Counted from the stretch's first letter, positions 4,605 to 43,554 are shown. The stretch: 64,000 nucleotides of DNA from Candidatus Omnitrophota bacterium (GCA_043805415.1 JAZDHZ010000027.1:2089-66088); one strand, 5' to 3'. Program-made: numbers and translations. Notes: generated by a model not told the origin, from the letters alone.

Positions 4605-4620
4605 TGCCGCATCCTTTATC

Positions 4621-25007: not shown

Positions 25008-25637
25008 TTACTCATCATGTCCTATGAGAGGCGATTTGACAAACAATAAAGGAAATACAATATCACTAAAACAGCAGGGAATCCATACTGAAAGAAACAA
25101 AAATACCATTATTGGAATATAAATAATTATATTAATACTTGTTTCTTTAGCCATTAAGATATGAAACATCGAAGCAAAAGTACTAAGTAATACATGCCCT
25201 AAATGCGGGAATTTTGTGGTTGGATTAAAATAAGCAATAATGATTCCCAATAATGCCATGGAATTTATTAGCAATGGTCTTTCGATAAAACCAGCATGAA
25301 GATGAGAATGCGGCATATTCAGCAGTTTTTCGCCAAAAAAAGGAATAACTGAATCGCTTACAGTTGCCACGCCGATTGATCCGACATAACCCACAAGCAG
25401 AATAAATAAAGGATTACACTTCTTCTTATCCGCTGGGCATTGATAACGTTTATACATTGCTGCTGTTGTTAAAGCGCTTAATAATACATGTCCCGGATGA
25501 CAAATATAAAAAAGATTTTCCGCTGATTGGTAAGATATCTTATGCAAAAAGAAAACAAGGATGATCCCGATAATCGCGCCGCTTAAAGTCATTGGCGCGT
25601 GTTCTTTTAATTCTTTTACAATTTCTTTAAATAACAT
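25008..25637 (-). CDS. Hypothetical polytopic membrane protein, His/Cys-rich
   Basis: 209 aa, ~6 predicted TM helices, with conserved-looking His pairs (HPGH, HSHLH, HLGH). Tightly packed between the amidase and lipA. Confidence 0.4.
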   Translation of the reverse strand: MLFKEIVKELKEHAPMTLSGAIIGIILVFFLHKISYQSAENLFYICHPGHVLLSALTTAAMYKRYQCPADKKKCNPLFILLVGYVGSIGVATVSDSVIPFFGEKLLNMPHSHLHAGFIERPLLINSMALLGIIIAYFNPTTKFPHLGHVLLSTFASMFHILMAKETSINIIIYIPIMVFLFLSVWIPCCFSDIVFPLLFVKSPLIGHDE

Positions 25638-25648: not shown

Positions 25649-26503
25649 TTATAAATATTCAGACGCAAGATAAGAACTCCGCACATACGGACCGCTTTCA
25701 ATATGCGAAAACCCAAATTCCTCAGCTTTTTGCTTATAAAAATTAAACCTGTCCGGATGAATAAATTCCCTGACTTGATAATGCTGTTTACTGGGAGCTA
25801 AATACTGTCCGATACTGAGAAAATCACAGCCTGTTTTCTTTATATCTTTCAAAACTTCCAATGCTTGCCCTTCTGTTTCTCCCAGTCCTAGCATAATTCC
25901 CGATTTTATATATTTATCAGGAGCAATGTCTTTAGCTGTTTTTAAAACGTTTAATGACCTTTGATAATCAGAACCAATCCTAACCTGGGGATAAAGATCC
26001 GACACTGTTTCAATGTTGTGAGCAAAAATATCACAGCCAGCTTGGATCACTTGTTTAATTGATTCAACCTGTCCCTGAAAATCAGGGACAAGAACTTCAA
26101 CTGTAATATTAGGATCTATGGATTTTACTGCTTTTATATTTTGGACAAACGCTTCTGCTCCCCCATCAGCGAGATCATCGCGAGTTACACTGGTTATTAC
26201 TACATGCTTTAATCCGAGCCTGTTTACGGCTTCTGCCAATCTTTGCGGCTCAGCATGATCAACCATCTGCGGTTTCCCGCTTTTTACTGCGCAAAAGCGG
26301 CAATTACGGGTGCAAACATTTCCCAATATAAGAAAAGTCGCCACTCTTGCCGAAAAGCACTCACTAATATTTGGACAATGAGCTTCTTTACATACAGTAT
26401 TAAGCTCTAATTGTCCAAAAAGCTGATGCAAATCTAAGCACTTAGCTAAATTAACCTTTTTCTTAAGCCAATGCGGTTTTTTTACGGTTTCCATTATATT
26501 CAT
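25649..26503 (-). CDS. lipA: Lipoyl synthase
   Basis: CPNISEC plus radical SAM CTRNCRFC motifs. 284 aa. Confidence 0.9.
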   Translation of the reverse strand: MNIMETVKKPHWLKKKVNLAKCLDLHQLFGQLELNTVCKEAHCPNISECFSARVATFLILGNVCTRNCRFCAVKSGKPQMVDHAEPQRLAEAVNRLGLKHVVITSVTRDDLADGGAEAFVQNIKAVKSIDPNITVEVLVPDFQGQVESIKQVIQAGCDIFAHNIETVSDLYPQVRIGSDYQRSLNVLKTAKDIAPDKYIKSGIMLGLGETEGQALEVLKDIKKTGCDFLSIGQYLAPSKQHYQVREFIHPDRFNFYKQKAEEFGFSHIESGPYVRSSYLASEYL

Positions 26504-26532
26504 TGATTAAATAACCTTATTATATCAAAAGA

Positions 26533-27357
26533 TTAGTCTTCTTGTTTTTTAACTATACTCGCTTTTTTAAAATAATTCCATTGTTTGGTCTTATACTTTT
26601 CTTCATTCAATGTATGCGTTAAATCTTCTTCTGATCTGGTTAAAATTGTTTTTTTCAAGCAAACATCATACGAAGATTTAAACGAATCTATCAATAAAAG
26701 AGATATTTCTTTCAAACTAATCTCTCTTTTAAGTTCTTCTTGCAAACAAGTAACCCGTTGCTCTATGCCTTCTAGGTCCTCTTTAACAAAAGTTTTAATC
26801 TTGGGAAAATCTAATGTCAAAGGGATTGAACCATGCTGAAAAATAATATCCCGCGAGCGTTTTTGCGCGTTTCCCCCGATTTTTTTATCACCAATCATAA
26901 TATCAAATTTCTCGGTTGTGGCAAAACAAAACTCAGAAGGGTCTCCATGTTTATACTTATCAATATCTCCGGCAAAGAACGGTTTCAATCCAAGCTCTCG
27001 ATAGGCATTAAACACAAAGGCTGTTAAAACGCGGAAACTTTTTTTAACTGAATCAGAAACATTTAAGTCTTGCTTGGAACAAACAATGCTATAGGTTATT
27101 TCATTATCATGGAATATTGCTTCACCACCGGTAATCCTCCGGACAAAATCTAGTTTATACACTAGACATTGTGATAGATTTAAAGCACTCGCCGGAACCT
27201 GAGAAGAACCCAAAGAAATAGCCGCTGGCTTCCAGCTATATATCCGCAGGGTCGGCATTCCCCCTTTATATATATACGTCTGCAATATGGATTCATCAAT
27301 AGCCATATTTGTATACGCATCATTTGCAGGGGAAATTATTAAACGCCAATTAATCAT
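26533..27357 (-). CDS. Lipoate-protein ligase / octanoyltransferase family protein (LplA/LipM-like BPL_LPL catalytic domain)
   Basis: GGNAQKRSRDIIFQHGSIPL lysine motif. Preferred ATG at 27357. The ORF track TTG at 27393 is less likely. Confidence 0.7.
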   Translation of the reverse strand: MINWRLIISPANDAYTNMAIDESILQTYIYKGGMPTLRIYSWKPAAISLGSSQVPASALNLSQCLVYKLDFVRRITGGEAIFHDNEITYSIVCSKQDLNVSDSVKKSFRVLTAFVFNAYRELGLKPFFAGDIDKYKHGDPSEFCFATTEKFDIMIGDKKIGGNAQKRSRDIIFQHGSIPLTLDFPKIKTFVKEDLEGIEQRVTCLQEELKREISLKEISLLLIDSFKSSYDVCLKKTILTRSEEDLTHTLNEEKYKTKQWNYFKKASIVKKQED

Positions 27358-27402
27358 ACATTGAAGATTCCAAACTATAGTTGTAAATAACAAATTTATG
27401 TA

Positions 27403-28854
27403 TTAAGCTTGCTGCCATCTAAGTTTTAAGTCTCTTGCGGCTTTAGTTTCATCTAAACGTTTGATTGGCATATTATCCGGAGCATCATGTAATTTTTGCG
27501 CATCATTATCACAAAGTTTAGCTGCCCCTATCAATATCTCGATAAAATTATCCAAAGTCTCTTTTGATTCAGTTTCAGTAGGTTCAATCATAAGTGCTTC
27601 TTTTACAATTAAAGGGAAATATACAGTTGGCGGATGCAGGCCTTGACTGATTAGATATTTAGCAATATCTAATGCGCTCACCCCTTTTTCTTTTTGTCGC
27701 TCAGCTGAAGCCACAAATTCATGCATACATACTCTATCATATGGAATGGAAAAATATTTTCTCAATAAAACCCTACAATAATTCGCGTTTAATACTGCTT
27801 TTTCCGCGACATTTATTAACCCGGATTTACCTAAAAGCATAATATAGGCATAACTTTTTAAAATAACTCCGAAATTTCCGCAAAAAGGAGCGATAAACCC
27901 TAATGATTTTGGCTCATCATAATCCAGGGCATAAGTTCCATCACTTCTCTTTTTAACCCGGGAAATTGGCAGAAAATCTTTTAGTTTCTTGATTACTCCC
28001 ACAGGCCCAGCGCCCGGTCCGCCTCCGCCATGAGGAGTCGCGAAAGTTTTGTGAAGATTTAAATGCACTATATCAAAACCCAGATCCCCTGGCCGTGACT
28101 TCCCCAGGATTGCATTGAGATTTGCGCCGTCATAATATACAAGCGCTCCAACCTCATGCGCCGCGTCACAAATATTTTTTATTTGAGAGTTAAAAACCCC
28201 TAATGTATTCGGACAAGTAAGCATAACTCCGGCCACATCTTCATTCAGCTTGCTTTTAAATACATCAATGTCCATACAACCATTGCTCCCAGTAGGAACA
28301 ACAATTACTTCATAGCCGGCAATTGCCGCGCTCGCGGGATTAGTCCCATGTGAAGAATCCGGAACAATGATGTATTTACGTTTTTGTCCCTGATAACGAT
28401 GATACGCGGCAATGATCATAACTCCGGTAAGCTCGCCATGCGCTCCGGCAAGAGGCTGCATAGTAAAAGCATCCATTCCGGTGATCTCGGAAAGCAAACG
28501 CTCTGTTTTATAAACAACTTCCAAAGAACCTTGCGCCAGCATCCCGCCGCCTCTAAGCTGCGGCATTAGCGGATGCAGATCAAGAAAACCATCCAAGGAC
28601 GCTATTTTTTCCGTGAATTTCGGATTATATTTCATTGTGCATGATCCTAAGGGATAAAAATTAGTATCCACTGAAAAATTCAATCTCGATAAATTAGTAT
28701 AATGCCGCACTACATCCAGTTCTGAAACCTCAGGCAATTCAGCATCTTTATCCCGAAGATATTGTTTGGGAAATTCAAGGTTCTGATTGACCGTGCACAC
28801 CGGAAGCTTCAATCCTTTACGTCCTTTTACACTTTTTTCAAATATTAACTGCAT
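27403..28854 (-). CDS. gcvPB: Glycine dehydrogenase (decarboxylating) subunit 2
   Basis: 483 aa with PLP-lysine region typical of GcvPB. 10-nt overlap with gcvPA. Confidence 0.9.
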   Translation of the reverse strand: MQLIFEKSVKGRKGLKLPVCTVNQNLEFPKQYLRDKDAELPEVSELDVVRHYTNLSRLNFSVDTNFYPLGSCTMKYNPKFTEKIASLDGFLDLHPLMPQLRGGGMLAQGSLEVVYKTERLLSEITGMDAFTMQPLAGAHGELTGVMIIAAYHRYQGQKRKYIIVPDSSHGTNPASAAIAGYEVIVVPTGSNGCMDIDVFKSKLNEDVAGVMLTCPNTLGVFNSQIKNICDAAHEVGALVYYDGANLNAILGKSRPGDLGFDIVHLNLHKTFATPHGGGGPGAGPVGVIKKLKDFLPISRVKKRSDGTYALDYDEPKSLGFIAPFCGNFGVILKSYAYIMLLGKSGLINVAEKAVLNANYCRVLLRKYFSIPYDRVCMHEFVASAERQKEKGVSALDIAKYLISQGLHPPTVYFPLIVKEALMIEPTETESKETLDNFIEILIGAAKLCDNDAQKLHDAPDNMPIKRLDETKAARDLKLRWQQA

Positions 28855-30182
28855 AAAACCGCCTCTAAGCTTTCTGCCAGCTTTTTAATCTCTTCTTTTG
28901 TCCTTTTTTCAGTTACAGTCACCAAAAGATAATTTTCCATGCCCTTATAAAATCGTCCCAGCGGAAATCCACAGGCAAATCCCTTTTCAATCATTTTATT
29001 TACAACTTCTCCGGCATTTTGCGGAAGTAATACTGTAAATTCATTAAACGTCGGTGTAGTTCTTTTCACCTCTACTCCGGGAACTTTATCCAGAACTTCT
29101 TTGGCAAATTCACTATTGCGGTAATTCATCAAGCTTAGCTGTTTTAGACCTTGTTTGCCAATCAAAGAAAGATAGATAACTGCCCGCAAAGCGCAAAGCG
29201 CTTCATTAGAGCAAATATTTGATGTGGCTTTTTCTCTTCTGATATGCTGCTCTCTTGCCTGTAAAGTTAAAACAAAACCCTGCTTATTATCTTTGTCCAC
29301 TGTTTGTCCGACAACTCTTCCGGGAATTTTGCGCACATATTCTTTTTTAACTGCCATAAACCCAAGATAAGGACCGCCAAAAGAAAGCGGGATTCCCAAA
29401 CTCTGGCCTTCTCCGGTAGCAATATCAACACCCATCTCCGCCGGAGTTTTCATTAAACCCAGGGCAATAGGATAAACCGATTGCACCAGCAAAGCTCCTA
29501 AGGAATGGGCTTTTTTAGCAATATCTGAGTAATCATCTATGGCGCCAAAAAAATTAGGATTTTGAATAATCACAGCAGCGGTTTTATCATCAAGATGCTT
29601 ATATATCTGCTCTCTGGAGCTATGTCCATGCACAACATCAGTTTCAATAAATTCAATTGATAAATTGGTTGTATAGCTATATAGCATGCTCCGGTATACC
29701 AAATTAACTCCGCTATCAACGATTATTTTGCGTCTGCCGGTGATCCGCACAGCCATCATCGCGGCTTCATATAAAGCAGTACCGCCATCATATAAAGAAG
29801 CATTAGCCGCGTCCAGACCGGTTAATTCACAGATCGCGGTTTGATATTCAAAAATAGACTGCAGCCAGCCTTGGGAACATTCCGGCTGATAAGGGGTATA
29901 CGCCGTATAAAACTCTGCCCTGCCGCTTAAAGCATCAACTCCCGCGGGAATATAATGATCATAAAAACCCGCGCCTAAAAAACTGATCAGGTTTGTCGCG
30001 TTTTTGTTGGCAAGTTTTTTAAAATGCTCAATAACCTCAAACTCAGATTTACCTTCTGGGATATCAAATGATTGGGCTCGAAGATCCGGAGTTATATCCT
30101 TAAACAAATCATCAATCTTTTTAACCCCAATGATTTTTAACATTTCATTTATTTGCTCTTTTGTGTGCGGAGTATATGGCAT
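28845..30182 (-). CDS. gcvPA: Glycine dehydrogenase (decarboxylating) subunit 1
   Basis: 445 aa, GcvPA family. Stop overlaps the gcvH stop region. Confidence 0.9.
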   Translation of the reverse strand: MPYTPHTKEQINEMLKIIGVKKIDDLFKDITPDLRAQSFDIPEGKSEFEVIEHFKKLANKNATNLISFLGAGFYDHYIPAGVDALSGRAEFYTAYTPYQPECSQGWLQSIFEYQTAICELTGLDAANASLYDGGTALYEAAMMAVRITGRRKIIVDSGVNLVYRSMLYSYTTNLSIEFIETDVVHGHSSREQIYKHLDDKTAAVIIQNPNFFGAIDDYSDIAKKAHSLGALLVQSVYPIALGLMKTPAEMGVDIATGEGQSLGIPLSFGGPYLGFMAVKKEYVRKIPGRVVGQTVDKDNKQGFVLTLQAREQHIRREKATSNICSNEALCALRAVIYLSLIGKQGLKQLSLMNYRNSEFAKEVLDKVPGVEVKRTTPTFNEFTVLLPQNAGEVVNKMIEKGFACGFPLGRFYKGMENYLLVTVTEKRTKEEIKKLAESLEAVLCS

Positions 30183-30568
30183 TACAGGCTTTCCTTTAAA
30201 TAGTTTTTGTACGCATCAGCATCCATCAAATTTTCTATCTGAGATTCCTCAGTAAGTTCAATCGCAAGCAACCATCCTTGCTCATAAGGAGATTGATTTA
30301 CCAGCTCTGGATTTTCCACCACTTTATTATTTACCGCAGTAACTTTTCCGGATAAAGGCGCATAAATATCTGAGGCAGCCTTGACTGATTCTATTGTGGC
30401 GATTTGTTTAAACTGCTCGCATTGAGTCTGTTGAGCCGGCAATTCCACAAAAGTAATATCACCCAGCTCATGCTGGGCATGATCACTGATTCCCATCTTT
30501 GCCTGATTACCATCGATTTTTACCCATTCATGTTCTTTTGTGTAAAATAATCCTTCTGGTACATTCAT
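30182..30568 (-). CDS. gcvH: Glycine cleavage system H protein (lipoyl carrier)
   Basis: MNVPEGLFYTKEHEWVK... with lipoyl-lysine motif ESVKAASD. ATG at 30568 preceded by AAGGAG. The ORF track N-terminal extension overlaps gcvT and was trimmed. Confidence 0.85.
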   Translation of the reverse strand: MNVPEGLFYTKEHEWVKIDGNQAKMGISDHAQHELGDITFVELPAQQTQCEQFKQIATIESVKAASDIYAPLSGKVTAVNNKVVENPELVNQSPYEQGWLLAIELTEESQIENLMDADAYKNYLKESL

Positions 30569-30584
30569 AATCTGCTCCTTTTCA

Positions 30585-31691
30585 TTATATCCGCAAACTG
30601 CCTTTTTTATAAAAAGGCCTTTTAACCACTTTGGCATTTATTTTAACATTTTCATGCTGCAGGATAATTTCTGTGCCTATGTCACTAAATTGCGTTTCAA
30701 TATAACCCATGCCTATGCCGCAGCCCAGACTGGGCGAATATGATCCGCTGGTCACCACTCCTACTTTTCGATTATTAGAGAATATTTCATAATCATGCCG
30801 CGGCGCGCGCCTTGAATCAGTTTCAAAACAACATAATTTTTTTACCAAGCCCTGCTCCTGTTTTTTTCCCAAAGCCTTTTTACCAGAAAAATCTTTGTTC
30901 ATATCCACAAAACCAGCTAATCCTGCTTCCAGCGGAGTTGTGGTTGAATTAATATCTTGACCATATAGGGGATAACATACTTCTAATCTTAAGGTATCAC
31001 GGGCACCCAGGCCTGCTGGCTTTACGGTTTTATTTTTCAGCAGCAAATTCCAAAGTGCGATGACTTTATCATTACTTATATACAATTCAAAACCCAGTTC
31101 ACCAGTATAGCCAGTACGGCTAATAATAATATTTTCTCCTAAAACTTTAAAATAATCAAAGGTGTAATAATCTAGCTTTAAAATCCCTTCACCTGCTATT
31201 TCAACAAGCACATCCCGGCTAAGCGGACCTTGTAAATCAAGCTTTGCCAATGTATTGGAAATATCTTCAATTTTCACATTATCCTTAGCTAAGTTTTTCT
31301 CCAGATGTTCAAAATCCGCTGATGAAGTTGCCGCGTTTACAACCAGCATCCACTTATCCTGCTCTATCCGATAGATAATAACATCATCAATAATTCCCGC
31401 ATTATCATTAAGCATAAATCCGTATCTGCAGGTTTTTAAAGGCATATTAACCAAATTTTGGGTTAATATTTTATCTAATTTGCTGGGCAAAGCATCAGCT
31501 TTGATCAAGAATTCACCCATATGACAAATATCAAACACAGAGCAATTATTTCGTGTCCACTGATGCTCACTTATTATGCCTTCATATTGAATGGGCATAA
31601 GCCAGCCGCCAAAAGGCGCGCATTTTGCGCCCAATTTATTATGCTGCTCAAATAAGGGAGTTTTTTTTGTTTTCATATCCTTTAATGCCAA
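30585..31691 (-). CDS. gcvT: Glycine cleavage system aminomethyltransferase T protein
   Basis: 368 aa, GcvT fold signatures. The true start may be the internal Met (MKTKKTPLFEQH) at 31673. Confidence 0.85.
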   Translation of the reverse strand: MALKDMKTKKTPLFEQHNKLGAKCAPFGGWLMPIQYEGIISEHQWTRNNCSVFDICHMGEFLIKADALPSKLDKILTQNLVNMPLKTCRYGFMLNDNAGIIDDVIIYRIEQDKWMLVVNAATSSADFEHLEKNLAKDNVKIEDISNTLAKLDLQGPLSRDVLVEIAGEGILKLDYYTFDYFKVLGENIIISRTGYTGELGFELYISNDKVIALWNLLLKNKTVKPAGLGARDTLRLEVCYPLYGQDINSTTTPLEAGLAGFVDMNKDFSGKKALGKKQEQGLVKKLCCFETDSRRAPRHDYEIFSNNRKVGVVTSGSYSPSLGCGIGMGYIETQFSDIGTEIILQHENVKINAKVVKRPFYKKGSLRI

Positions 31692-31780
31692 AATAGTGAC
31701 AGGTTAGGGATTTAAGATACCATAAACCCAATTTTATTTCAAGTGTTTTCCTAAATTCCCAATAAATCTAGCATAAACTG

Positions 31781-33085
31781 CTATTTTCTTGTTTTAAAAC
31801 TATGTCCAAATCCCTGCGAAATGGTTCTGCCTAAAGATATTGTCATTGCCGCTGCCCCGCCGTGGCAATCTCCAGGCTGCTCTTTAATACATATCTTATC
31901 CGGGTATATCCGGTAATGTTCTCGATATTGCTGGGGAGTTAAATTAGGCATAATCACATTTGCCCCGCAGCATAATACCTTTTGCCTTCCCTGCGGATCG
32001 ATTGAGCCGACAGCTGTTGTTGCCGGAATATGCGTATTTCTGGTTAGAATCCGCACCAAGGCAATAACTTTGCGCATCATCTCTATTGTGCCTTTTTCCG
32101 CCGCGTTCAATGGGGTTTCCGGATTAGGAATAAACGGGCCGAGCCCAATCATATCCAGATCAAGCTCAAGCATTAAAAGTATATCCTCTGCAAGAATCTC
32201 CTTGGTTTGCCCAGGCAATCCAACCATACAGCCAGATCCCACCTGAAAACCAAGTTGTTTTAAATCTTTTAAACATTGAATTCTGGTTTGATAATCAGAA
32301 TCTGGTTTTAATTTCCTAAATAACTGTTCATTTGAGGTCTCAAAACGCAGCAAATAGCGGTCAGCACCTGCCTGCCGCAGTTTTTTATACTCAGAAAAAG
32401 ACCGCTCTCCTAAGGATAGAGTAATCGCACAACTCGTCTGCTGTTTAATTTCTTTAATTATCTGGCAAAGCTGCTCAATACTATAAGCATTATCTTCGCC
32501 TGACTGTAAAACAATTGTTTGGTAATTAAGCGCAACCGCTGATTTGGTAATATCTACTATTTCATTGCTCGACAATCTATATCTATTAATCTCTTTATTA
32601 TCTTTTCTTAATCCGCAATAAAGACAATTCCTTCCGCAATAATTAGAAAACTCAATTAAGCCTCTTAAATGGATATCATCTCCGCAGTAAAGCTTGCGCA
32701 GAGCATCAGCAAAATTAACCAGAATCTGTTCTGGATGGGTTTTAAGAAAATAGATTATATTCTGTTTTAAACTCCGGCGTGTTTTGGGCCAAATAAGCTG
32801 ATATAATGATTCTACGTCTTTCTGCTGCTTATGTGTTAACTTGCTATAGCCGTATATAATAATGCCGTGCGCAGCATCAAGTTCTATGCGCTGCGCATCA
32901 AACATACGCTGATTACTAATAGCTTGGCCAGAAACAAATTCTTGCCTATTCCCTTTAATATTAATAAGATGCACATTTACCGGATATATCTGCTCAACGC
33001 ATTTAGTTAAAACCCCTAACTCGCTAAGAGCTATATCCTGATCTATTTTTTTCGCTGGATTAGAAGTAAAGATCTCGTTCGCCAT
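31781..33085 (-). CDS. hydE: [FeFe]-hydrogenase maturase HydE (radical SAM), with an extra ~85-aa N-terminal extension
   Basis: LRGLIEFSNYCGRNCLYCGLRKDN radical SAM motif in biotin-synthase-like context. 434 aa versus the usual ~350. Confidence 0.8.
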   Translation of the reverse strand: MANEIFTSNPAKKIDQDIALSELGVLTKCVEQIYPVNVHLINIKGNRQEFVSGQAISNQRMFDAQRIELDAAHGIIIYGYSKLTHKQQKDVESLYQLIWPKTRRSLKQNIIYFLKTHPEQILVNFADALRKLYCGDDIHLRGLIEFSNYCGRNCLYCGLRKDNKEINRYRLSSNEIVDITKSAVALNYQTIVLQSGEDNAYSIEQLCQIIKEIKQQTSCAITLSLGERSFSEYKKLRQAGADRYLLRFETSNEQLFRKLKPDSDYQTRIQCLKDLKQLGFQVGSGCMVGLPGQTKEILAEDILLMLELDLDMIGLGPFIPNPETPLNAAEKGTIEMMRKVIALVRILTRNTHIPATTAVGSIDPQGRQKVLCCGANVIMPNLTPQQYREHYRIYPDKICIKEQPGDCHGGAAAMTISLGRTISQGFGHSFKTRK

Positions 33086-34568
33086 TTTTCACCCGGTTAT
33101 AATATTCCATAAACTGCTCAAATACTTTGGGCAGTGTTTTCTTTATTTCCCCAATCTCTTTTTCAATTATCTCTTCGGATTTAAGCTTTGTCTGTTCCGA
33201 AGCAAAATCATCAACCCATTCGCGAAACGTTAAAACCGCGTTAAGCTTGCAGAACTTCCCTTCTTTTCCGCTGCGCAGCATATCCATAATACACTCGCCG
33301 GTACGGCCGCAGCGGTAGCCGGCTGTACAAAAAGAAGTAATATATCCCATCTCAATATATTCATTAATCAGTTCTTCCAGACTGCGCGTGTCGCCTAAAA
33401 TAAACTGCTGTCTTTGACCTTGCTGCTGTTTAGTCTCATCGCCGTATGCGCCGATAGCTATTTTGGTCGAAGCATCGGTTTGGGTAATGCCCAAAGCAAT
33501 TGCCTGTTTTCGGATATCGGCATTTTCCCTGGCAGTAATAATCAGTCCGGTGTGCGGTACTGCCAATCTTAAAACAGTTATAATTTTTTTAAAATCAGCA
33601 TCAGAAACTTTATATTTTAAATTCTGCGTAAGCGGAGTATTATCCGCTGGCTCAATCCGCGGAAAAGAAATTGTATGCGCTCCGATGCCAAAGTTTTTTT
33701 CCAGCTCCTGATTATGCGTGATTAATCCCATTACCTCAAACTTCCAATCATATAATCCGAATAATACCCCTAATCCCACATCATCAATTCCCGCTTCCAT
33801 GGCGCGGTGCATAACATAAAGCCGCCAGTTATAATTGCTTTTAAGCGTATTTTCCGGATGTACTTTTCTATAAGTATCCTGATGATAGGTTTCCTGAAAA
33901 ACCTGGTAAGTGCCAATTCCCGTGTCATGCAGACGCCTTAATTCCTCGATTGAAAGCGGCGCGGCATTCACATTTACTCTTCTTATCTGACCAATACCTT
34001 TTGCGGTTTTTTCTTTTATCCCGTATATGGTTTTAACTGACTCAACCATATAATCAATACCCGTGCTTGGATGCTCGCCATAAACAACAACCAAACGTTT
34101 GTGCCCGATTTTGCCGCAAAGAACTCGAACTTCTTTTTCAATCTCCGCTAAGGAAAGTATTTTTCTTTGGGTTGCATGATTATCTTCTCTAAACGCACAG
34201 TAAAGACAATTATTTACACAAGCATTGCCTAGATACAAAGGCGCAAAAGTAACAATCCGATTATCATAAACTTTCTTTTTAACTTTTAAAGCCGTCTCCC
34301 GCATAAGCTGCCACAACTGAGGATCGCTTACATTTAAAAGACAAGCTGCTTCTTCGGCACTAAGCGTTTTAATCTGCAAAGATTTTTCCAGAATATTTAA
34401 TACTAATTGCTTATCCGGATTTTTTGCTTGGCTAAGAATGGCATCGATATTGTCCTGATCAATGAAGTTTTTAGTATCAGCTAAATATTTATCTATCTGT
34501 TCGTTTTTTATCCGCTGTTTAATCCAGTTTTCCAGTTCATTGGTTTTTAGTTTCATTAGATCCTCCAC
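33060..34568 (-). CDS. hydG: [FeFe]-hydrogenase maturase HydG (radical SAM tyrosine lyase)
   Basis: CVNNCLYCAF N-terminal cluster plus C-terminal auxiliary Cys cluster CTAGYRCGRTGEC. 502 aa. Confidence 0.85.
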   Translation of the reverse strand: MEDLMKLKTNELENWIKQRIKNEQIDKYLADTKNFIDQDNIDAILSQAKNPDKQLVLNILEKSLQIKTLSAEEAACLLNVSDPQLWQLMRETALKVKKKVYDNRIVTFAPLYLGNACVNNCLYCAFREDNHATQRKILSLAEIEKEVRVLCGKIGHKRLVVVYGEHPSTGIDYMVESVKTIYGIKEKTAKGIGQIRRVNVNAAPLSIEELRRLHDTGIGTYQVFQETYHQDTYRKVHPENTLKSNYNWRLYVMHRAMEAGIDDVGLGVLFGLYDWKFEVMGLITHNQELEKNFGIGAHTISFPRIEPADNTPLTQNLKYKVSDADFKKIITVLRLAVPHTGLIITARENADIRKQAIALGITQTDASTKIAIGAYGDETKQQQGQRQQFILGDTRSLEELINEYIEMGYITSFCTAGYRCGRTGECIMDMLRSGKEGKFCKLNAVLTFREWVDDFASEQTKLKSEEIIEKEIGEIKKTLPKVFEQFMEYYNRVKNGERDLYF

Positions 34569-35817
34569 TCAATAATAATTTTTCGGCTTTTTTATATGCC
34601 TCAAGCGCTGCGGGAAACGGGCTTAGTACCCTTTCAATCACACCCTGTAATTTCGCGATACATACTCCATAATTGCTAATCGCTACTCCTGCCTGTTCTG
34701 CTTGCTGTATCCGGCTAAGCATGGCGCGGCGATTAATCATGCAGCCGCCGCAATGAATAATCAGTTTATATTCCGCTAAATTATCCGGATAATCACTGCC
34801 GCGGCAAGTATCGAATTTAATTGCTGCCCCGGTATACTGCCGAAACCAGCGGGGGATTTTAACTCTAGCGATATCATCTTCAATCGGATGATGCGAACAG
34901 CTCTCAGCAATCAAAACTTTATCCTTAGATTTAAGGGTATCAATTACAGCGGCTGCTTGCGCTGCCTTAATCAGATCACCTTTAAATCTTGAAAATAAAA
35001 TTGAAAAAGTCGTACATTTAACATCCGCCGGAGTATCGGCAACCATCTTTAACACCACTTGAGAATCACAGATCACAATATCCGGTTTTCTCACTATATT
35101 TTCAATAACATGCGCGTATTCTCTTTCTTTAACCACAATGCTTATCGCGTCATTATCCAAAACTTCTCTGATTGTCTGAACCTGAGGGAGAATTAAGCGG
35201 CCTTTGGGTGCCTGCAGATCAATCGGCACTATCAGCACTGCGCAGCCTGCTGCCGGAATAAGATCACTGATAAGATCCGGCGGCTTTAAAAAATCCTCAG
35301 GACAAATATCAATCAGCAGTTTTTTAAACCGATTAAGCGTTTGCTCCTGGTTATCCGAATCAATGCTTGAGCAAATCAATATCTGTTTAGAAAAACCTTT
35401 AATCTGCTCAAGATATCCCTCTTCGGGATTATTCATATCAGCTTTATTAATAACCACAATCAGCGGGATCTTTTCCTGTTCTGCTCTTTGGGCAACCAAG
35501 ATTTCATAATCCTGCCAGGTTCCGGCTTCAACAATAAGCACAACCACATCCGCTTTTTTAAACACCGCGTATGTTTTTTTAAGCCGCATTTCCGAAAGCG
35601 CTGAGGCATCATCAATTCCCGCTGTATCTAAAAATACCACCGGACCTAAAGGCAATAGCTCCATTGTTTTTTCCACTACATCAGTTGTTGTGCCGGCAAT
35701 CGGAGAAGTTATTGCCACATCCTGCAAGCTGATATAATTAAGAAACGTGGATTTTCCCACATTCATCCTGCCGAACAGGCCGATATGCAGGCGTAGTGAT
35801 TTAGGCGCCTTATTCAT
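34537..35817 (-). CDS. hydF: [FeFe]-hydrogenase maturation GTPase HydF
   Basis: GRMNVGKSTFLN P-loop. C-terminal CxH...HCxxC FeS-binding region (ESCSHHP...HCGGC). ATG at 35817 sits 5 nt after the aspA-like stop. Confidence 0.85.
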   Translation of the reverse strand: MNKAPKSLRLHIGLFGRMNVGKSTFLNYISLQDVAITSPIAGTTTDVVEKTMELLPLGPVVFLDTAGIDDASALSEMRLKKTYAVFKKADVVVLIVEAGTWQDYEILVAQRAEQEKIPLIVVINKADMNNPEEGYLEQIKGFSKQILICSSIDSDNQEQTLNRFKKLLIDICPEDFLKPPDLISDLIPAAGCAVLIVPIDLQAPKGRLILPQVQTIREVLDNDAISIVVKEREYAHVIENIVRKPDIVICDSQVVLKMVADTPADVKCTTFSILFSRFKGDLIKAAQAAAVIDTLKSKDKVLIAESCSHHPIEDDIARVKIPRWFRQYTGAAIKFDTCRGSDYPDNLAEYKLIIHCGGCMINRRAMLSRIQQAEQAGVAISNYGVCIAKLQGVIERVLSPFPAALEAYKKAEKLLLSGGSNETKNQ

Positions 35818-37198
35818 CTTGTTTATACCCCAATGATACGATATTAGCCGGATCAAGCACTTTGTTTACTAAATCTTTACCCAGTTTCTGGCTTAAAAAA
35901 TCGTTTAAGCTTATCTTTTTGTTTTCCGGGATTTGAGAAAATTCCTGAACTAATTCCGTGGCTTTTTCATATCCCAGATAAGGCAAAAAAGCCGTGATTA
36001 AACCCGGACTTTTATTTAAATTTTCTTGGCATTTTGCTGGTTTAGCCTTTATCAGCAGCACATGTTTTGTCAGTATTTTATTGGCATTTAACAATACATC
36101 CAATGATTCAAGCATCGCGTAAGCTAAAAGCGGCATAAATTCATTTATCTGCAAAGTGCTTCGGCTTACTGCCTCGGTTATCAGAAAATCATTCGCCAGG
36201 ACTTTTATCCCTGCCTGGATTATCGCTTCCATAATTACCGGATTGATTTTTCCCGGCATAATTGATGAGCCAGCCTGCACTGCAGGCAATTCTATTTCTT
36301 CAAATAAATGCAGTAACCGCAGATCTTGGCAGATTTTAATCAGATTCTGAGCATGGGCTTTAATAATTCCAGAGGTTTCCCCAAAAGCATCACTATTGGC
36401 CGTACTATCAATCAGATTCTCAGCCCGGCAGATCCCCAAATTGCTGAGCTGTCTCAGTTTTTCAATTACTAAAAAAATATAATCTCTAGGAGCAGTAAGT
36501 CCGGTCCCCACCGCTGTGCCACCGATATTAACCGTGCGGATACGTTCCTGAGCTTTAAACATTCTCCACCTATCCCGTCCAAAAGCCTCGGCAAAGCCGG
36601 AAAATTCCAAACCCAAGGTAATCGGCACAGCATCCTGCAGCTCTGTCCTGGCAATTTTTACAATATGGCTAAATTCTTTTTCTTTTGCCTGAAAAGCGCC
36701 TTGGAGTTTAGCGATCTCCGCGCTTAATAAATTTAACTTGTAAATCACCGCGATTTTTAAAGCCGTGGGATAAACATCATTTGTTGACTGATGTTTATTA
36801 ACATCTTCAATCGGATGGATCAGAGTATAATCTCCTTTATCTCCCCCCATTTTCTCAATCGCGATATTGGCAATGACTTCATTAATATTCATATTTGTGG
36901 AAGTGCCTGCGCCGCCTTGCAAAGCATCAACAATAAACTGATCATCATGTAAACCAGCATTAATCGCATCACATGCTTGACAGATTGAATCAGCCTTGGC
37001 CTGTTCCAGATAACCCAACTCAGCATTGGCCAGGGCACAGGCTTTTTTAACCAACCCTAAAGCGTGAATCAGCGAAATATTTATTCTACTTCCCGTTATC
37101 GGGAAATTCTCCCAAGCTCTTTGTGTATGAATGCCCCAGTAGGCGTCTTGGCTAACTTCTTTTTGCCCTAAAAGGTCTGATTCCATCCGGTTTTCCAT
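35810..37198 (-). CDS. Aspartate ammonia-lyase / class II fumarase family enzyme (hyd-cluster-associated AspA-like)
   Basis: GSSIMPGKINPV signature loop. 462 aa. Confidence 0.8.
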   Translation of the reverse strand: MENRMESDLLGQKEVSQDAYWGIHTQRAWENFPITGSRINISLIHALGLVKKACALANAELGYLEQAKADSICQACDAINAGLHDDQFIVDALQGGAGTSTNMNINEVIANIAIEKMGGDKGDYTLIHPIEDVNKHQSTNDVYPTALKIAVIYKLNLLSAEIAKLQGAFQAKEKEFSHIVKIARTELQDAVPITLGLEFSGFAEAFGRDRWRMFKAQERIRTVNIGGTAVGTGLTAPRDYIFLVIEKLRQLSNLGICRAENLIDSTANSDAFGETSGIIKAHAQNLIKICQDLRLLHLFEEIELPAVQAGSSIMPGKINPVIMEAIIQAGIKVLANDFLITEAVSRSTLQINEFMPLLAYAMLESLDVLLNANKILTKHVLLIKAKPAKCQENLNKSPGLITAFLPYLGYEKATELVQEFSQIPENKKISLNDFLSQKLGKDLVNKVLDPANIVSLGYKQDE

Positions 37199-37206
37199 AA
37201 TTACCT

Positions 37207-37470
37207 CTATTTATTTTTCGCGTTTTGCTTACTTAATGCTGATTTAACGGAAACTCCTTCAATATTGCCCAGTTTACCGGTCATTGTGCCCAGGTCGTCA
37301 GTGGTAATATCCACTGTCAGGGTAATAACACTGCAGTTTCTTTCTTTATACGGCAAACCTACCCGGGCAACAATATTATCCCCATATTCCGAAAGGATCT
37401 GATTAACAGCCTGTGCCTGTTTTTTTCGATCTTCAAGGATAATCCCAACAAACCCTAATCTTTTTTCCAT
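37207..37470 (-). CDS. Small ACT/NikR-C-like protein of the TM1266 'iron-only hydrogenase system regulator' family
   Basis: MEKRLGFVGIILEDRKKQAQAVNQILSEYGDNIVARVGLPY...GKLGNIEGVSVK. ATG at 37470 preceded by GGAGG. Confidence 0.65.
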   Translation of the reverse strand: MEKRLGFVGIILEDRKKQAQAVNQILSEYGDNIVARVGLPYKERNCSVITLTVDITTDDLGTMTGKLGNIEGVSVKSALSKQNAKNK

Positions 37471-37660
37471 AATCCTCCACCTCTGTAGGTAGGGACAGGG
37501 CAAGCCCTGTCCATTTATCTTAATGTCGATGATTGAAAGTCAATAACGTATAGCGTTTAGAAATTAGTAATTCATAACTATTTTTTCTAATCGCTAAACA
37601 CTGTATTCTGTCTTACCGTGCGTAAAATTTATCTATCATCTTTTTCTCATAGCATCTTTA

Positions 37661-37701
37661 AAAATAAAAAACCCAACCTTAGTTAATCCTATAAGGTTGG
37701 G
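37661..37701 (-). terminator. Rho-independent terminator downstream of hldD
   Basis: 10-bp stem CCCAACCTTA (37672..37681) / TAAGGTTGGG (37692..37701), followed on the minus strand by TTTTTTATTTT. Confidence 0.55.
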
Positions 37702-37833
37702 ATATGCTTAAATAAAAATCACTTTCCCTCCCCTTGGTTTTAGACCAAAATCAGTCCTCTCCGCAGGATATATACTAATTCACAAAACAGCAGAATCTAT
37801 GTTCTTAAATCTTTAATCTAAGTTTAGAATTTA

Positions 37834-38882: not shown

Positions 38883-39125
38883 TTATTCACAATCAAAAGA
38901 AACTAATCTTAACTCGCGCATATCTGAGTCTTCGAAATGCAGCTTTGCTGTTTGTAAAGGCGTATTTTTAGACTGTTCTTTGAAAAAATATGTTAATATT
39001 TCGGGATTTATCTCAGTAAACTGGCCCATTTTCAGATAAACATTGGTGATTTTTTTAGTATTATTCTTCTCTGCCAGCTTAAGTAAATCCTGAAAAAGAT
39101 TTTTAATCACATGCATTTCATGCAT
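38883..39125 (-). CDS. HypA-like hydrogenase nickel-insertion protein, N-terminal domain only (no zinc-finger half)
   Basis: MHEMHVIKNLFQDLLKLAEKNNTKKITNVYLKMGQFTEINPEILTYFF...AKLHFED parallels the HypA MHE...V.LK.G.F motif pattern. Ends after 80 aa with no CxxC...CxxC. Confidence 0.55.
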   Translation of the reverse strand: MHEMHVIKNLFQDLLKLAEKNNTKKITNVYLKMGQFTEINPEILTYFFKEQSKNTPLQTAKLHFEDSDMRELRLVSFDCE

Positions 39126-39147
39126 AAAAGCCTCCTGCTGATCTGTT

Positions 39148-39630
39148 TTATTTTAGCATATTTCTTCGAATAATTTCTACTATTTCATCTGCTGTTTTTT
39201 TAATTTCCCCTGACAGCCCTTCACCAAAACAAACTGATTTTGGCTGAATTCCGATAAAAAACACTCTAGTTTTTATGCTTTGGCAGATAATCCCGGTGAT
39301 AACATTCAAAGGAATCGCGTGAGTACTCAAAGTTGTTTGCGGAATTTTATCTTCGGGAATTATCCTGACCTCGCCGGGGTTACCGCCCCAATCAGCCGCG
39401 TCGATAATTAATATCTTTTTCGGTCCAAGGCTAATAACTTCTTCAATAATATTTTCCGGAGTATACCCGGCATTAATTACCTTTAACCCGATTATTTTTT
39501 CAAGTTCGCCAGCAATATAAGGCCCTACTCCATCATCAAATCTAAAAGAATTCCCGACAGCAACAATAAGGTCACTGTCGGGATTAAGCTTAAGCAACTC
39601 AATAATATTACCGGTCAATGTATTTGACAT
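39148..39630 (-). CDS. [NiFe] hydrogenase maturation endopeptidase (HycI/HoxW/FrhD family)
   Basis: LIVAVGNSFRFDDGVGPYIAGEL motif. Start is taken as the internal Met at 39630. The ORF track start is 39666. Confidence 0.75.
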   Translation of the reverse strand: MSNTLTGNIIELLKLNPDSDLIVAVGNSFRFDDGVGPYIAGELEKIIGLKVINAGYTPENIIEEVISLGPKKILIIDAADWGGNPGEVRIIPEDKIPQTTLSTHAIPLNVITGIICQSIKTRVFFIGIQPKSVCFGEGLSGEIKKTADEIVEIIRRNMLK

Positions 39631-40933
39631 TAAGAAAATGCGCTGAACAGGAAATGCAAGGATCATAGGCTCGAACCAGCATTTCCATCAGCAAAGTTAT
39701 TTCCTCTTGTTTTTTATCCAAGACTTCCGGAACAAGTTTTTTCATATCGCATTCAATATTATTAAGGTTTTGTCCTGTAGGAATAATACAGTTGGCGTTT
39801 ATAATCTTACCCTTAGCGTCCACCTCATATTCATGAAACAGTATCCCGCGGGGAACTTCTACCGCGCCAACGCCTTTTCCCGCCTTAACTGGTATCTGGC
39901 CGTTTTCATTTAAACCCACAGTTATTGCCTGTGAATAATCAATCCCCTCATTCTTAAAATCTTTAAGTATTTTAATCGAATCCTCAAGACTATGGATACA
40001 TTCAATAAGCTGGGCAGCGGTATTCAAGAAGGGGTTTGTTGTGATTGGCTTTAAACCAATAGCTTTAGCTACTTTTTTTGCTTTAGGGTGAAGCTTATTA
40101 AAATTAAGATTCACTCTGGCCAAAGCTCCGACCATATAAGATTCGCGGCTGGCTTTGGTATGCTTTGCCGAAGAATGCGGCACCACAAATTCATTGGTAA
40201 TTTTTTTATAATCATGCTTATCCATACGCAAGCCGTCTGTTGAGCCGATATCTCCTTGTAAAAGCGGATACTCATCAGTGTCATTTACCAAACCAACATA
40301 CTCTGTCTCTCTTTGAAATTCCGGGAATTTAAGACTTGCTGCCAGTTCAATAGTCGGAGTCATATCCACCTGAATGCTTTTTAAGATCTCAAGCATGGCA
40401 TCAAGATCCTTTTCCTTCGGCAGTTTTGTAAAACCGCCGACAATCGCGGAAATCGGATGAACATGCCGGCCGACTAAAATATCACAAACATCATTGCAGG
40501 CTTTTTTCATTCTTAAGGCACGCCTGACAACATCATTATGTGTATGAATTAACGGCACAAAACTCTTTACGCCAAGAAGATCAGGAGCTACCAGCAGATA
40601 AATATGCAAAATATGACTATCAAGATTTTCCAAATGCAGCAGCAGTTTCCGCAGTTTAATTGTCTGCTCAGTAGGAATAAAGCCGATCGCGTCCTCAGCA
40701 GCCTGGATCGATGCCAAAGTATGGCCGCAGGCGCAAATCCCGCAAATCCGGCTGGTAATATGCTGCGCTTCAAAAATTGACCGGCCGCGGAGCATACCTT
40801 CAAAAAACCGGGGGGATTCAACAATATCCAAACGGCATTCTTCAAGTTTGCCATTTTTCACATTTACCACAATATTCCCATGGCCTTCTACCCGGGTCAG
40901 ATACTCAACATTTACTTTTACATTTTTACTCAT
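39608..40933 (-). CDS. [NiFe] hydrogenase large (alpha) subunit, group 3b sulfhydrogenase type
   Basis: N-terminal RICGICACGH and C-terminal DPCISCSAH Ni-Fe ligand motifs. 441 aa. Confidence 0.9.
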   Translation of the reverse strand: MSKNVKVNVEYLTRVEGHGNIVVNVKNGKLEECRLDIVESPRFFEGMLRGRSIFEAQHITSRICGICACGHTLASIQAAEDAIGFIPTEQTIKLRKLLLHLENLDSHILHIYLLVAPDLLGVKSFVPLIHTHNDVVRRALRMKKACNDVCDILVGRHVHPISAIVGGFTKLPKEKDLDAMLEILKSIQVDMTPTIELAASLKFPEFQRETEYVGLVNDTDEYPLLQGDIGSTDGLRMDKHDYKKITNEFVVPHSSAKHTKASRESYMVGALARVNLNFNKLHPKAKKVAKAIGLKPITTNPFLNTAAQLIECIHSLEDSIKILKDFKNEGIDYSQAITVGLNENGQIPVKAGKGVGAVEVPRGILFHEYEVDAKGKIINANCIIPTGQNLNNIECDMKKLVPEVLDKKQEEITLLMEMLVRAYDPCISCSAHFLNVKYIDR

Positions 40934-41681
40934 CAGTTTTCAACTCCCCTAACTCACGCGGTTTGTTGTACATGTTAATTTTATTTTCAATCCAATCCAG
41001 AGAAATATTGTATTTTTCTAAAATATCTTTCTGCCCTTTTTCCGCCGGATTACTCACAATTCCCCGACAGCCATAACAGATATTGCCGTTATTTATACAC
41101 CAGGAATTACATCCCGCGCGGGTAATCGGCCCCATACAGGAGATTCCTTTATCATACATACACTCATTTTCATTAAGCTTACATTCCACGCAAACCGCGT
41201 TATCCGGAACATTATAAGCAATTCCCATTAGCGCTGCTTTTAAAACCTTAACAAATTCCGGAATATAAACCGGACAGCCGGGAACAAAATAATCTACCGG
41301 AACTACCTGATGCACTGCTCGGGTGGGCATAGTATCAAAATATTTCGCGTCTTGTTTATACACATATTCCCGAATGTCTTTTAAGTCAAAATTGTTTTTC
41401 ATTCCATTGATCCCGCCGATAGCAGCGCAAGACCCGTAAGCAATCAATACTTTCGCGGTTTTTCTAATCTTTTTAATTCTTTCCACTCCATGCGGGGTAG
41501 TAATACTGCCTTCAACAATCGCCACATCATAGCTATTTGATTTTTCCGACATTACTTCTCGGAATTCCACAACATCAATAAGATCTAAAACATCCAATAA
41601 TGTCTCGCCCATATTCGCGATTTGCAGCTGACAGCCTTCACAACAGGTAAAATCAAAAAACGCAACTTTAACTTTTTTCAT
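40926..41681 (-). CDS. [NiFe] hydrogenase small (delta) subunit
   Basis: CEGC proximal-cluster motif near the N-terminus (FDFTCCEGCQLQ). Further Cys clusters. 251 aa. Confidence 0.85.
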   Translation of the reverse strand: MKKVKVAFFDFTCCEGCQLQIANMGETLLDVLDLIDVVEFREVMSEKSNSYDVAIVEGSITTPHGVERIKKIRKTAKVLIAYGSCAAIGGINGMKNNFDLKDIREYVYKQDAKYFDTMPTRAVHQVVPVDYFVPGCPVYIPEFVKVLKAALMGIAYNVPDNAVCVECKLNENECMYDKGISCMGPITRAGCNSWCINNGNICYGCRGIVSNPAEKGQKDILEKYNISLDWIENKINMYNKPRELGELKTDE

Positions 41682-41683
41682 AA

Positions 41684-42523
41684 TTATAATGCCTCGTGTT
41701 TTCCTTTTATCTGGTCATAACTATACACTGGGCCATCCTGACAGCAATAATGTTCGCCAATTTGACAATGCCCGCATTTACCCACTCCGCATTTCATATG
41801 CCGCTCTAAAGATAAAAGTATCTGTCTTTCCGGTATGTTCTTTTTTAGTAATTCGGCAATCACAAATTTATACATTATCGGAGGCCCGACAACAATCGCG
41901 AAGGTTCGCGCTATGTCCAGAGTTACTCCGGGGATTAATGAAGTAATTAAACCAACATTGCCTTTCCAATCAGGATCCGATCTATCCACTGTACATTGGA
42001 AATTCACATCAAGCCGTTTTTCCCATTCTTTTACTTCATCTCCGAAAAGCATGTCTTTGGGAGTTTTACAGCCAAGCAAAATATTTACTTTGCCATAGTC
42101 GCGGCGATTATCAATAACAAAATTAATCAATGATCTCAACGGAACAATACCCAGCCCACCGGCAACAAACAATAAGTCATTACCCTCTAGGATATTAGTC
42201 GGAAAACCATGGCCAAAAGGCCCCCGGATCCCGACAATATCACCGGCATCAAGTTTATGCAGCGCTTTGGTTAAAATCCCGGTATTTCTTACTACAATCT
42301 CAAATGAACTTCTTTTTGTAGTCGGTGAAGATGATACAGAAATCGGCGCTTCACCAATGCCTGGAATTGAAATCATCACAAACTGGCCCGGCTCATGATC
42401 CAGGACTTCACTTCCGGCAAGAGAAATCTCAAAAAATTTTTCCAGAGCAGTCATTTTTTTGGCACGAATGATAGTTCCCTTTTTTACAATATACTCTGAT
42501 TCTTTAAGCGGTACTTGTATCAT
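41684..42523 (-). CDS. Sulfhydrogenase gamma-like subunit (FAD/NAD(P)-binding, C-terminal 2Fe-2S)
   Basis: Ferredoxin-NADP reductase fold with C-terminal CGVGKCGHC. ATG at 42523 overlaps the beta-subunit TGA (ATGA). Confidence 0.8.
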   Translation of the reverse strand: MIQVPLKESEYIVKKGTIIRAKKMTALEKFFEISLAGSEVLDHEPGQFVMISIPGIGEAPISVSSSPTTKRSSFEIVVRNTGILTKALHKLDAGDIVGIRGPFGHGFPTNILEGNDLLFVAGGLGIVPLRSLINFVIDNRRDYGKVNILLGCKTPKDMLFGDEVKEWEKRLDVNFQCTVDRSDPDWKGNVGLITSLIPGVTLDIARTFAIVVGPPIMYKFVIAELLKKNIPERQILLSLERHMKCGVGKCGHCQIGEHYCCQDGPVYSYDQIKGKHEAL

Positions 42524-43554
42524 TTTTTTTCCTTTGCTAAAGCATTGACGGTTTCTTTTAATTTTATCTGGGCCATGCATGTTCTGGTACATCTGCCGCA
42601 GCCCGTACAAAAATAGCGGCTGAATTTATCCACCGGATAATTGAACTTTCGCATATATCTATGCTTCTGACGATCAGCGCGTTCTTCTCTGAAACTCTCG
42701 CCGCCGGCAATCTTGGCGAAATCTTCATTCTGACATGAATCCCAAACTCTCACTCGGCTGCCGGTATTAAAATCAAGGTTCATATCATCCTTGATATCAA
42801 AACAATAACAGGTAGGACAGACATTCGTACAATTTCCGCAGGAAATACAGCGAGAACCAACATCATCCCATACCTTACTATTCATTGACTGTTCGAAAAC
42901 AAGTTTTAAATCACTATGCTTTACATCCAGTTCATTCTTAAATATATCTCTTTTTGCCACGCGCAAAGCTTCCAGCTCTTTTAAATTTTCCTCTTTAGCT
43001 TTGCTAAAAAGACTTATTTCTTCTATAATTTTTTCACCCATTTGCGTATTTACATGGATAATAAAATTGTCTTTTAGTTCGCTAAAGAATAAATCATAGC
43101 CCCCGTTGGGAATATGATTATCCATCGCGGTACAGCTGGCATATTCATCGCAATAAGAATTACACTCAAACCCGATTATCGTGATTTTATCTTTTCTTAC
43201 TATATAATTAATATCTTTGGGCTTACTGGTAAAAACCATATTCAGACATTGGATGCCCGCTAAATCACAAGTATGCACGCCAAAAATTATCATTTCCTTA
43301 TATTCAAGTACTGGAGTCCATTTATGTTCAGATTTATTAAATTTCATAATTGTTTCTTGCTGCGGCATAAAATATTTTTTCGGAGGCAAAATCGTGGGGA
43401 TAGAGTGCAAAGCTATTTCTTCGCCGGTTGTTACTTCTTGAAAAGCGAAACTTTTTTCTCCCCTTTTAACCGGAGCAACAACAGATTGGATCAGGGCAAG
43501 TTTTGCCACAAAATCATTAAAATCTTTCTTTTTCAATACAACATATTTTTCCAT
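42520..43554 (-). CDS. Sulfhydrogenase beta-like subunit (multiple [4Fe-4S])
   Basis: CISCGNCTNVCPTC and CTGCGRCTRTC ferredoxin motifs. 344 aa. Confidence 0.8.
   Translation of the reverse strand: MEKYVVLKKKDFNDFVAKLALIQSVVAPVKRGEKSFAFQEVTTGEEIALHSIPTILPPKKYFMPQQETIMKFNKSEHKWTPVLEYKEMIIFGVHTCDLAGIQCLNMVFTSKPKDINYIVRKDKITIIGFECNSYCDEYASCTAMDNHIPNGGYDLFFSELKDNFIIHVNTQMGEKIIEEISLFSKAKEENLKELEALRVAKRDIFKNELDVKHSDLKLVFEQSMNSKVWDDVGSRCISCGNCTNVCPTCYCFDIKDDMNLDFNTGSRVRVWDSCQNEDFAKIAGGESFREERADRQKHRYMRKFNYPVDKFSRYFCTGCGRCTRTCMAQIKLKETVNALAKEKK

Follow-up and report, generated by a model that had tools for sequence, protein, structure and literature searches.

We analysed a 64,000-nucleotide stretch of a Candidatus Omnitrophota metagenome-assembled genome (MAG) (GCA_043805415.1, JAZDHZ010000027.1:2089-66088; hereafter the window, numbered from its first letter) that encodes the [FeFe] hydrogenase maturases HydE, HydG and HydF. 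Judged by its sequence, the interval 31,781-37,470 is a canonical, intact operon for maturation of the H-cluster, the active site of [FeFe] hydrogenases. We interpret it as a self-contained cassette with its own upstream terminator and spacer, serving a hydrogenase whose structural gene, hydA, lies elsewhere in the genome (probability roughly 0.78). The main argument is selective: HydF, an aspartate ammonia-lyase homologue (AspA) and a TM1266-like protein, which prior work links specifically with the H-cluster's diiron/dithiomethylamine portion (PMC11736057), are all under purifying selection, and an [FeFe] hydrogenase is therefore expected somewhere in these genomes. The cassette comprises five genes, in order of transcription:

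37207-37470, minus strand, TM1266-like small protein (TIGR03959, 103 bits, cut-off 60.8; PF21699)
35810-37198, minus strand, AspA homologue, 462 amino acids (aa) (NF008909, 566 bits, cut-off 510; PF00206)
34537-35817, minus strand, HydF GTPase scaffold, 426 aa (TIGR03918, 512 bits, cut-off 326)
33060-34556, minus strand, HydG, radical S-adenosylmethionine (SAM) tyrosine lyase (TIGR03955, 469 bits, cut-off 312)
31781-33085, minus strand, HydE, radical SAM maturase (TIGR03956, 360 bits, cut-off 254.6, residues 113-420)

All five proteins exceed the curated NCBIfam cut-offs, and their cluster-binding and GTPase motifs are intact. With overlaps or gaps of 8 nt between neighbours, the five genes have the look of a single, translationally coupled operon. 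The TM1266-like gene comes first, starting at an ATG at 37470 with GGAGG ahead of it; its product matches the solved Thermotoga maritima structure (PDB 2NZC, E = 6e-16), and in size (~80-90 aa) and hyd maturation-cluster setting it agrees with the TM1266 family; its relatives have 86-88 aa. Its putative regulatory role comes from annotation. The AspA gene, between those for TM1266 and HydF, overlaps the hydF start by 8 nt at its stop. HydF, identical (100%) to NCBI MFH1062242.1 (P0001), contains the dimerization and tetramerization domains HydF_dimer and HydF_tetramer (PF18128, PF18133) and a GTPase domain (PF01926), and reads CSHH...HCGGC (CxH...HCxxC) and GRMNVGKST at the expected motifs. 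The HydG open reading frame (ORF) extends to a GTG at 34568, although the probable start, as in relatives, is the ATG at 34556, which gives 498 aa. Its CVNNCLYC motif and C-terminal FCTAGYRCGRTG...FCKLNA are the same as in HydG of relatives with an adjacent hydA; loss of the C-terminal cysteine motif was considered and ruled out, the sequence being the same in all relatives. HydE has CGRNCLYC at its CX3CX2C motif, and its core falls within canonical HydE in a neighbour-joining tree.

To determine whether the maturases are maintained, the ratio of nonsynonymous to synonymous substitution rates (dN/dS) was calculated pairwise between the window and four related contigs, at a dS of about 1 or more. 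The ratio was 0.03 for TM1266, 0.06-0.11 for AspA, 0.08-0.10 for HydF, 0.08-0.11 for HydG and 0.09-0.16 for HydE. Neither stops nor frameshifts interrupt the five genes in six contigs (the window, L001/L002, L006, L087, L086 and L091). Low ratios and undisrupted frames together indicate that the maturases are in use; with HydE, HydG and HydF all recognized and all maintained by selection, the locus belongs among H-cluster maturation systems.

No [FeFe] hydrogenase accompanies them in the window. The motifs TSCCP/CCPxW, MPCxxK and CxxGCxxGG occur in none of the six frames of the 64 kb, PF02906 and PF02256 (Fe_hyd_lg_C and Fe_hyd_SSU) match no window ORF of at least 90 aa, and tblastn of eight H-domains against the window returned noise (E of at least 0.2), while the same eight queries detect HydA in 41 related loci. 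The original prediction, made from the window's sequence, is borne out on this point, and likewise in naming HydE, HydG, HydF and a TM1266-like protein over exactly the interval occupied by the cassette; it was right that the maturation set is complete, but it had missed the AspA homologue within it.

Where, then, would hydA lie? In relatives whose HydF is 58-65% identical, the usual order is hydA(-nuoEF-hydA)-TM1266-aspA-hydF-hydG-hydE. TM1266-aspA-hydF-hydG-hydE is the commonest order among 80 related loci, and aspA and hydF stay paired in 51 of 86. In several of these loci (L011, L021, L040, L048, L049 and others) two HydA paralogues flank nuoEF upstream of TM1266, one with TTCCPSW and the other with TSCSPGW, where serine takes the place of the second cysteine in the first H-cluster motif. 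Linkage to hydF is nevertheless far from general. Another hyd gene is found within 20 ORFs for only 56% of hydF genes (PMC11736057), and hydA is missing from 10 of the 26 related hydF loci that have about 10 kb of sequence on both sides. One relative has TM1266-hydG-aspA-hydF (P0063) beside a group 4 [NiFe] operon and its hydA (P0142) in a nuoE-nuoF-hydA operon on another contig, the two being assigned to the same assembly by a shared longest contig of 1,873,723 bp. The TM1266-TM1269 locus of T. maritima presumably also lacks hydA, which we take to lie far off at TM1424-1426. A distal hydA is a common arrangement, and we favour it here because hydA-less hydF neighbourhoods are frequent and because one relative has its hydA far from hydF. 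Omnitrophota commonly encode group A3 [FeFe] hydrogenases (PMC10066038), and in a portion of the supplementary tables of Seymour et al. (2023), among which the sister genome does not appear, only two genomes have hydEFG, both of which also have TIGR02512. A literature search on orphan hydEFG returned nothing relevant. From gene content and conservation, hydA is very probably present elsewhere in this genome.

Four observations weigh against this conclusion. In a protein search with an Omnitrophota HydA as query, whose best 120 matches were all at least 70% identical, 0 of 22 accession-checked matches came from this MAG (MFH1062xxx) or its sister (MBU108xxxx). Within the clade to which the window belongs, the ~75 kb surrounding the cassette is free of hydA. 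The usual position of hydA, upstream of TM1266, is occupied by other genes. Finally, for some near-complete Antarctic Omnitrophota MAGs, a group 3b [NiFe] enzyme was reported as the sole hydrogenase (PMC8542988).

The genes that occupy the usual hydA position belong to such a [NiFe] operon and to an epimerase, and all genes from 25.6 to 43.6 kb are on the same strand as the cassette:

38883-43554, minus strand, group 3b-like [NiFe] hydrogenase operon, a neighbour outside the cassette (Pfam, NCBIfam and L1/L2 motifs), consisting of the next six genes
42520-43554, minus strand, beta subunit (4Fe-4S clusters)
41684-42523, minus strand, gamma subunit (FAD/NAD domains)
40926-41681, minus strand, delta subunit
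39608-40933, minus strand, alpha subunit, the large subunit (RICGICACGH and DPCISCSAH)
39148-39666, minus strand, HycI-type protease
38883-39125, minus strand, HypA-like gene, 80 aa
37834-38799, minus strand, ADP-glyceromanno-heptose 6-epimerase (TIGR02197, 384 bits, cut-off 275)
37660-37701, minus strand, terminator-like hairpin and U-run, CCCAACCUU...AAGGUUGGG then UUUUUUAUUUUU (minimum free energy -15.8 kcal/mol, z = -2.45)

The four subunits and both the L1 and L2 motifs fit a group 3b hydrogenase; its best NCBIfam matches are to sulfhydrogenase (group 3b) subunits but all fall under the archaeal equivalog cut-offs, and for that reason we call it 3b-like. This is the nearest hydrogenase to the maturases and has its own protease and HypA-like gene, as originally predicted. 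The accompanying statement that only 400 bp separate the two systems needs correction: the end of the HypA-like gene is 1.4 kb from TM1266, with the epimerase gene between. Pfam scans of the window's ORFs revealed no hypCDEF. The 80-aa HypA-like protein, in the window and in all related 3b loci, retains an MHE N-terminus and ends in ...SFDCE, without the usual C-terminal zinc-finger half. A 363-bp spacer (37471-37833), which contains the hairpin, separates the epimerase gene from TM1266. Since the hairpin stands between them, the [NiFe]/epimerase and maturase units are most likely separate transcripts, as predicted from the spacer sequence. In sisters, the same interval (L001:7759-8100, L087:7825-8166) holds a 113-aa gene of the carboxymuconolactone-decarboxylase family; in the window it holds the spacer alone.

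On its other side, hydE is directly followed by genes for glycine cleavage and lipoylation:

25649-31676, minus strand, gcvT, gcvH, gcvPA, gcvPB, an lplA-like gene and lipA
31714-31742, minus strand, promoter-like block TTGAAA-17-TATCTT with a TG element, ahead of gcvT (consensus scan)

The T, H, P-alpha and P-beta components of glycine cleavage are all present; matches to TIGR00528 (333 bits), TIGR00527 (156 bits) and TIGR00510 (358 bits) are above the cut-offs, and Pfam identifies GDC-P (PF02347, twice) and LplA-B_cat. dN/dS of GcvT, GcvH, LplA and LipA is similar to that of the maturases. gcvT begins within 105 bp of hydE with no terminator between, and the promoter-like block ahead of it is kept in the window, L086, L001 and L006, in contrast to the remainder of the spacer, which ranges from 105 to ~480 bp; the consensus scan for promoters and terminators scored barely above shuffled sequence and served as a pointer only. 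Neither a glycine riboswitch nor any other Rfam family was detected in the hydE-gcvT spacer of the window and four related loci. Outside the clade, gcv genes occur within 10 kb in 1 of ~75 hydF loci, on the opposite strand and 5 kb off, which is about what chance would give. We regard the promoter-like block, the absence of a spacer RNA and the rarity of the association outside the clade as arguing against a functional link between hyd and gcv genes. In two sister contigs (L001:14035-14400, L006:13733-14150), a conserved insert of ~330 bp, relatively rich in GC, lies between hydE and the promoter-like block; it has no Rfam match and is not found in the window or L086. Downstream of lipA lies a gene for a 209-aa, His/Cys-rich membrane protein (25008-25637) without a family match (best PsiE, E = 0.003); every clade member, and L092 as well, has it directly after lipA.

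The clade consists of the window, two contigs of GCA_018817585.1, GCA_054043625.1 and three metagenome contigs, with HydF identities of 74-100%; among GTDB representatives, the best HydF match (85%) is from GCA_018817585.1. All share one gene order: NiFe, HycI, HypA, epimerase, TM1266, aspA, hydF, hydG, hydE, gcvT, gcvH, gcvPA, gcvPB, lplA, lipA. GCA_018817585.1 contains this whole NiFe-hyd-gcv locus twice, on L006 (JAHITE010000097.1) and L007 (JAHITE010000001.1), with proteins differing by a few percent to about 25%, and two related populations were apparently binned together.

Comparison with the next-closest lineage by [NiFe] large subunit (L092, GCA_054039915.1, 87% identity) showed where the cassette begins and ends. 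L092 has phosphofructokinase, rhomboid, the [NiFe] operon, HycI, HypA, epimerase, gcvT-H-PA-PB, lplA and lipA, followed by the same membrane protein (207 aa) and LysM amidase as in the window, and there are no hyd genes in its locus. The epimerase stop is 20 bp from the gcvT start, and the gcv-lipA genes occupy L092:13146-19223. The lack of hyd genes at this 20-bp junction marks the cassette as a discrete unit, its five genes having either been gained by insertion in the clade of the window or dropped out cleanly from the sister lineage. The same backbone without the cassette suggests that the cassette's adjacency to the [NiFe] and gcv genes is positional, as far as gene order can indicate.

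One feature sets the window's HydE apart from other members of the family. An N-terminal extension of ~106 residues (32768-33085, residues 1-106) is kept in five clade members and partly deleted in L091; across 80 loci, no other HydE has it. It has no Pfam match at E of at most 10 and a single match among 1.84 billion representative proteins. A degenerate HypC domain was considered but is not supported: besides the lack of a Pfam match, hhalign gave a probability below 1% against both HypC and the N-termini of the fusion proteins described below, and the extension lacks Cys2. A single-sequence AlphaFold model of HydE had a predicted local distance difference test (pLDDT) score of 41 and was not used.

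These fusion proteins were found among relatives fetched with the [NiFe] large subunit as query. In seven distinct loci (L093, at 12139-15716, and L096, L097, L098, L099, L102 and L103; L102 is the same as L109), at 76-83% alpha-subunit identity, the 80-aa hypA is immediately followed by a gene for a protein of 432-442 aa. Its N-terminus is a bona fide HypC/HupF domain (MCYAIPGKV..., PF01455) and its C-terminal part a HydE-like radical SAM core (PF04055; TIGR03956, 227 bits, just under the cut-off). Rex and/or a full HydG follow; in L103, the fusion and HydG stand between hypA and nikMN-like genes, after which come nuoE and nuoF::gltD. HydF, AspA, TM1266 and HydA are found in none of the seven loci. 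The fused cores group together as a single deep clade that excludes all canonical HydE, and the HydE of the window, which is among the canonical sequences, is not such a fusion. The HypC::HydE-like fusion is described in no paper that we searched and by no curated family. Stand-alone HypC-like ORFs occur elsewhere (L030:8297-8632, L044:3846-4109), inside Desulfofervidaceae [FeFe] maturation clusters that hold hydA, TM1266, aspA, hydF and hydE.

The steps by which the cassette would act are established pathway knowledge rather than something shown by the window. HydG would cleave tyrosine to produce an Fe(CO)2(CN)-cysteine unit, which HydE would turn into a diiron precursor, and HydF would hold this precursor during addition of the dithiomethylamine bridge. 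The bridge nitrogen would come as ammonium from the AspA homologue, passed on by the glycine cleavage system's aminomethyl-lipoyl H-protein, before the finished [2Fe] unit passes to an apo-[FeFe] hydrogenase. Biochemistry has shown that H-protein and T-protein together deliver the CH2-N-CH2 bridge (PMC11736057).

Three other accounts of the locus were weighed against that of an operon serving a distal hydA. That the maturases are decaying leftovers of a lost [FeFe] system is highly improbable. It could explain why the usual site upstream of TM1266 lacks hydA and nuoEF, why HydE has diverged more than any other gene of the cluster (59-74% identity among clade members) and why its extension is partly deleted in L091; but the catalytic motifs are intact, the five genes are uninterrupted in all six contigs, and dN/dS of 0.03-0.16 at such synonymous divergence contradicts relaxed constraint. 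We also think it unlikely that this genome has no [FeFe] hydrogenase, with at least HydG and HydE supplying Fe-CO/CN units elsewhere, most plausibly to the adjacent 3b [NiFe] enzyme. The seven fusion loci, with HydG and without HydF, AspA, TM1266 or HydA, speak for such a client, as do the relative with hydG and hydF beside a group 4 [NiFe] operon, the reported 3b-only MAGs (PMC8542988) and the failure to find hypCDEF in the window. However, HydF, AspA and TM1266, needed only for the diiron/dithiomethylamine cofactor, are strongly constrained by purifying selection, and HydE of the window is of the canonical type, outside the fused clade, with an extension unlike HypC. Between the cassette and the [NiFe] operon lie a terminator-like hairpin and an unrelated gene, L092 has the same operon with no hyd gene nearby, and the relative with hydF beside a group 4 [NiFe] operon does have hydA.

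A link in the other direction, in which the cassette and gcvTHP-lplA-lipA form one selected supercluster that ties assembly of the H-cluster to a dedicated supply of aminomethyl-lipoyl-H-protein, also appears improbable. The close, terminator-free junction between hydE and gcvT favours it, as does a gene order that persists at HydF identities as low as 74%, where dS is saturated. The roles of H- and T-protein in bridge delivery (PMC11736057) fit as well, and the Paratrimastix organelle holds HydE and HydF together with the glycine cleavage system, serine hydroxymethyltransferase, LplA and serine dehydratase (PMC9746703). Against this, L092 has the epimerase-gcv-lplA-lipA backbone without hyd genes, a conserved promoter-like block of its own precedes gcvT, behind a spacer whose length varies, and proximity of hydF to gcv outside the clade is at about the chance level. 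A broader possibility, which we consider less probable still, is that HydG/HydE-type enzymes of this Omnitrophota branch help to mature 3b [NiFe] hydrogenases through the fusion and HydG in relatives, and that in the window's clade, which has no such module, the neighbouring hydG and hydE take over this task, beside or in place of service to an [FeFe] enzyme. The fusion and HydG in 3b operons keep the idea of a non-canonical client alive for the phylum, but the result is not transferable to the cassette of the window, which is canonical and complete.

With the preferred reading, a standard maturation operon whose hydA is distal, little changes for the window, in which annotation pipelines already name every gene. 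The discrete cassette in a conserved backbone does caution against functional readings of [NiFe] or gcv adjacency. The item worth following is the fusion module, which lies outside the window: if it acts on that enzyme's [NiFe] site, it would be relevant to the unresolved question of where anaerobes obtain the CO ligand, and if HydG/HydE-type enzymes do help to mature 3b hydrogenases, there would be a tyrosine-derived route to [NiFe] CO/CN ligands under anoxic conditions. Elsewhere in the window, a pair of genes resembling NfnAB/sulfide dehydrogenase (3243-5484) encodes a GltD-like protein (453 aa) together with a FAD/NAD subunit resembling DHOD-B (287 aa), which fits a ferredoxin/NADPH-based anaerobic metabolism.

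Compared with known systems, the locus resembles canonical hydEFG and TM1266 systems in having all four families above their cut-offs with intact motifs, and differs in the ~106-aa N-terminal extension of HydE and in having no gene for a client hydrogenase within the 64 kb. An AspA homologue has been reported beside hydF in most hydF neighbourhoods (Pagnier et al. 2024, J Biol Chem, PMC11736057); the window agrees, its AspA gene being immediately upstream of hydF and overlapping it, and has in addition adjoining glycine cleavage and lipoylation genes, which were not examined in that study. The neighbouring [NiFe] operon is like group 3b (sulfhydrogenase-type) enzymes in its four subunits, L1/L2 motifs, HycI-type protease and HypA-like gene, but scores under the archaeal cut-offs and has a HypA cut to 80 aa. 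The fusion and HydG module shares with the window the phylum and the placing of HydE/HydG-type genes beside a [NiFe] operon of this kind, whereas the window's HydE is outside the fusion clade, has no HypC domain and is accompanied by HydF, AspA and TM1266. Also comparable are the Omnitrophota hydA-(nuoE-nuoF)-hydA clusters (for example, L011, L040, L048 and L049), which have the same five genes in the same order at 57-76% identity; in the window, the heptose epimerase and the 3b [NiFe] operon stand where these clusters have their hydA/nuoEF block.

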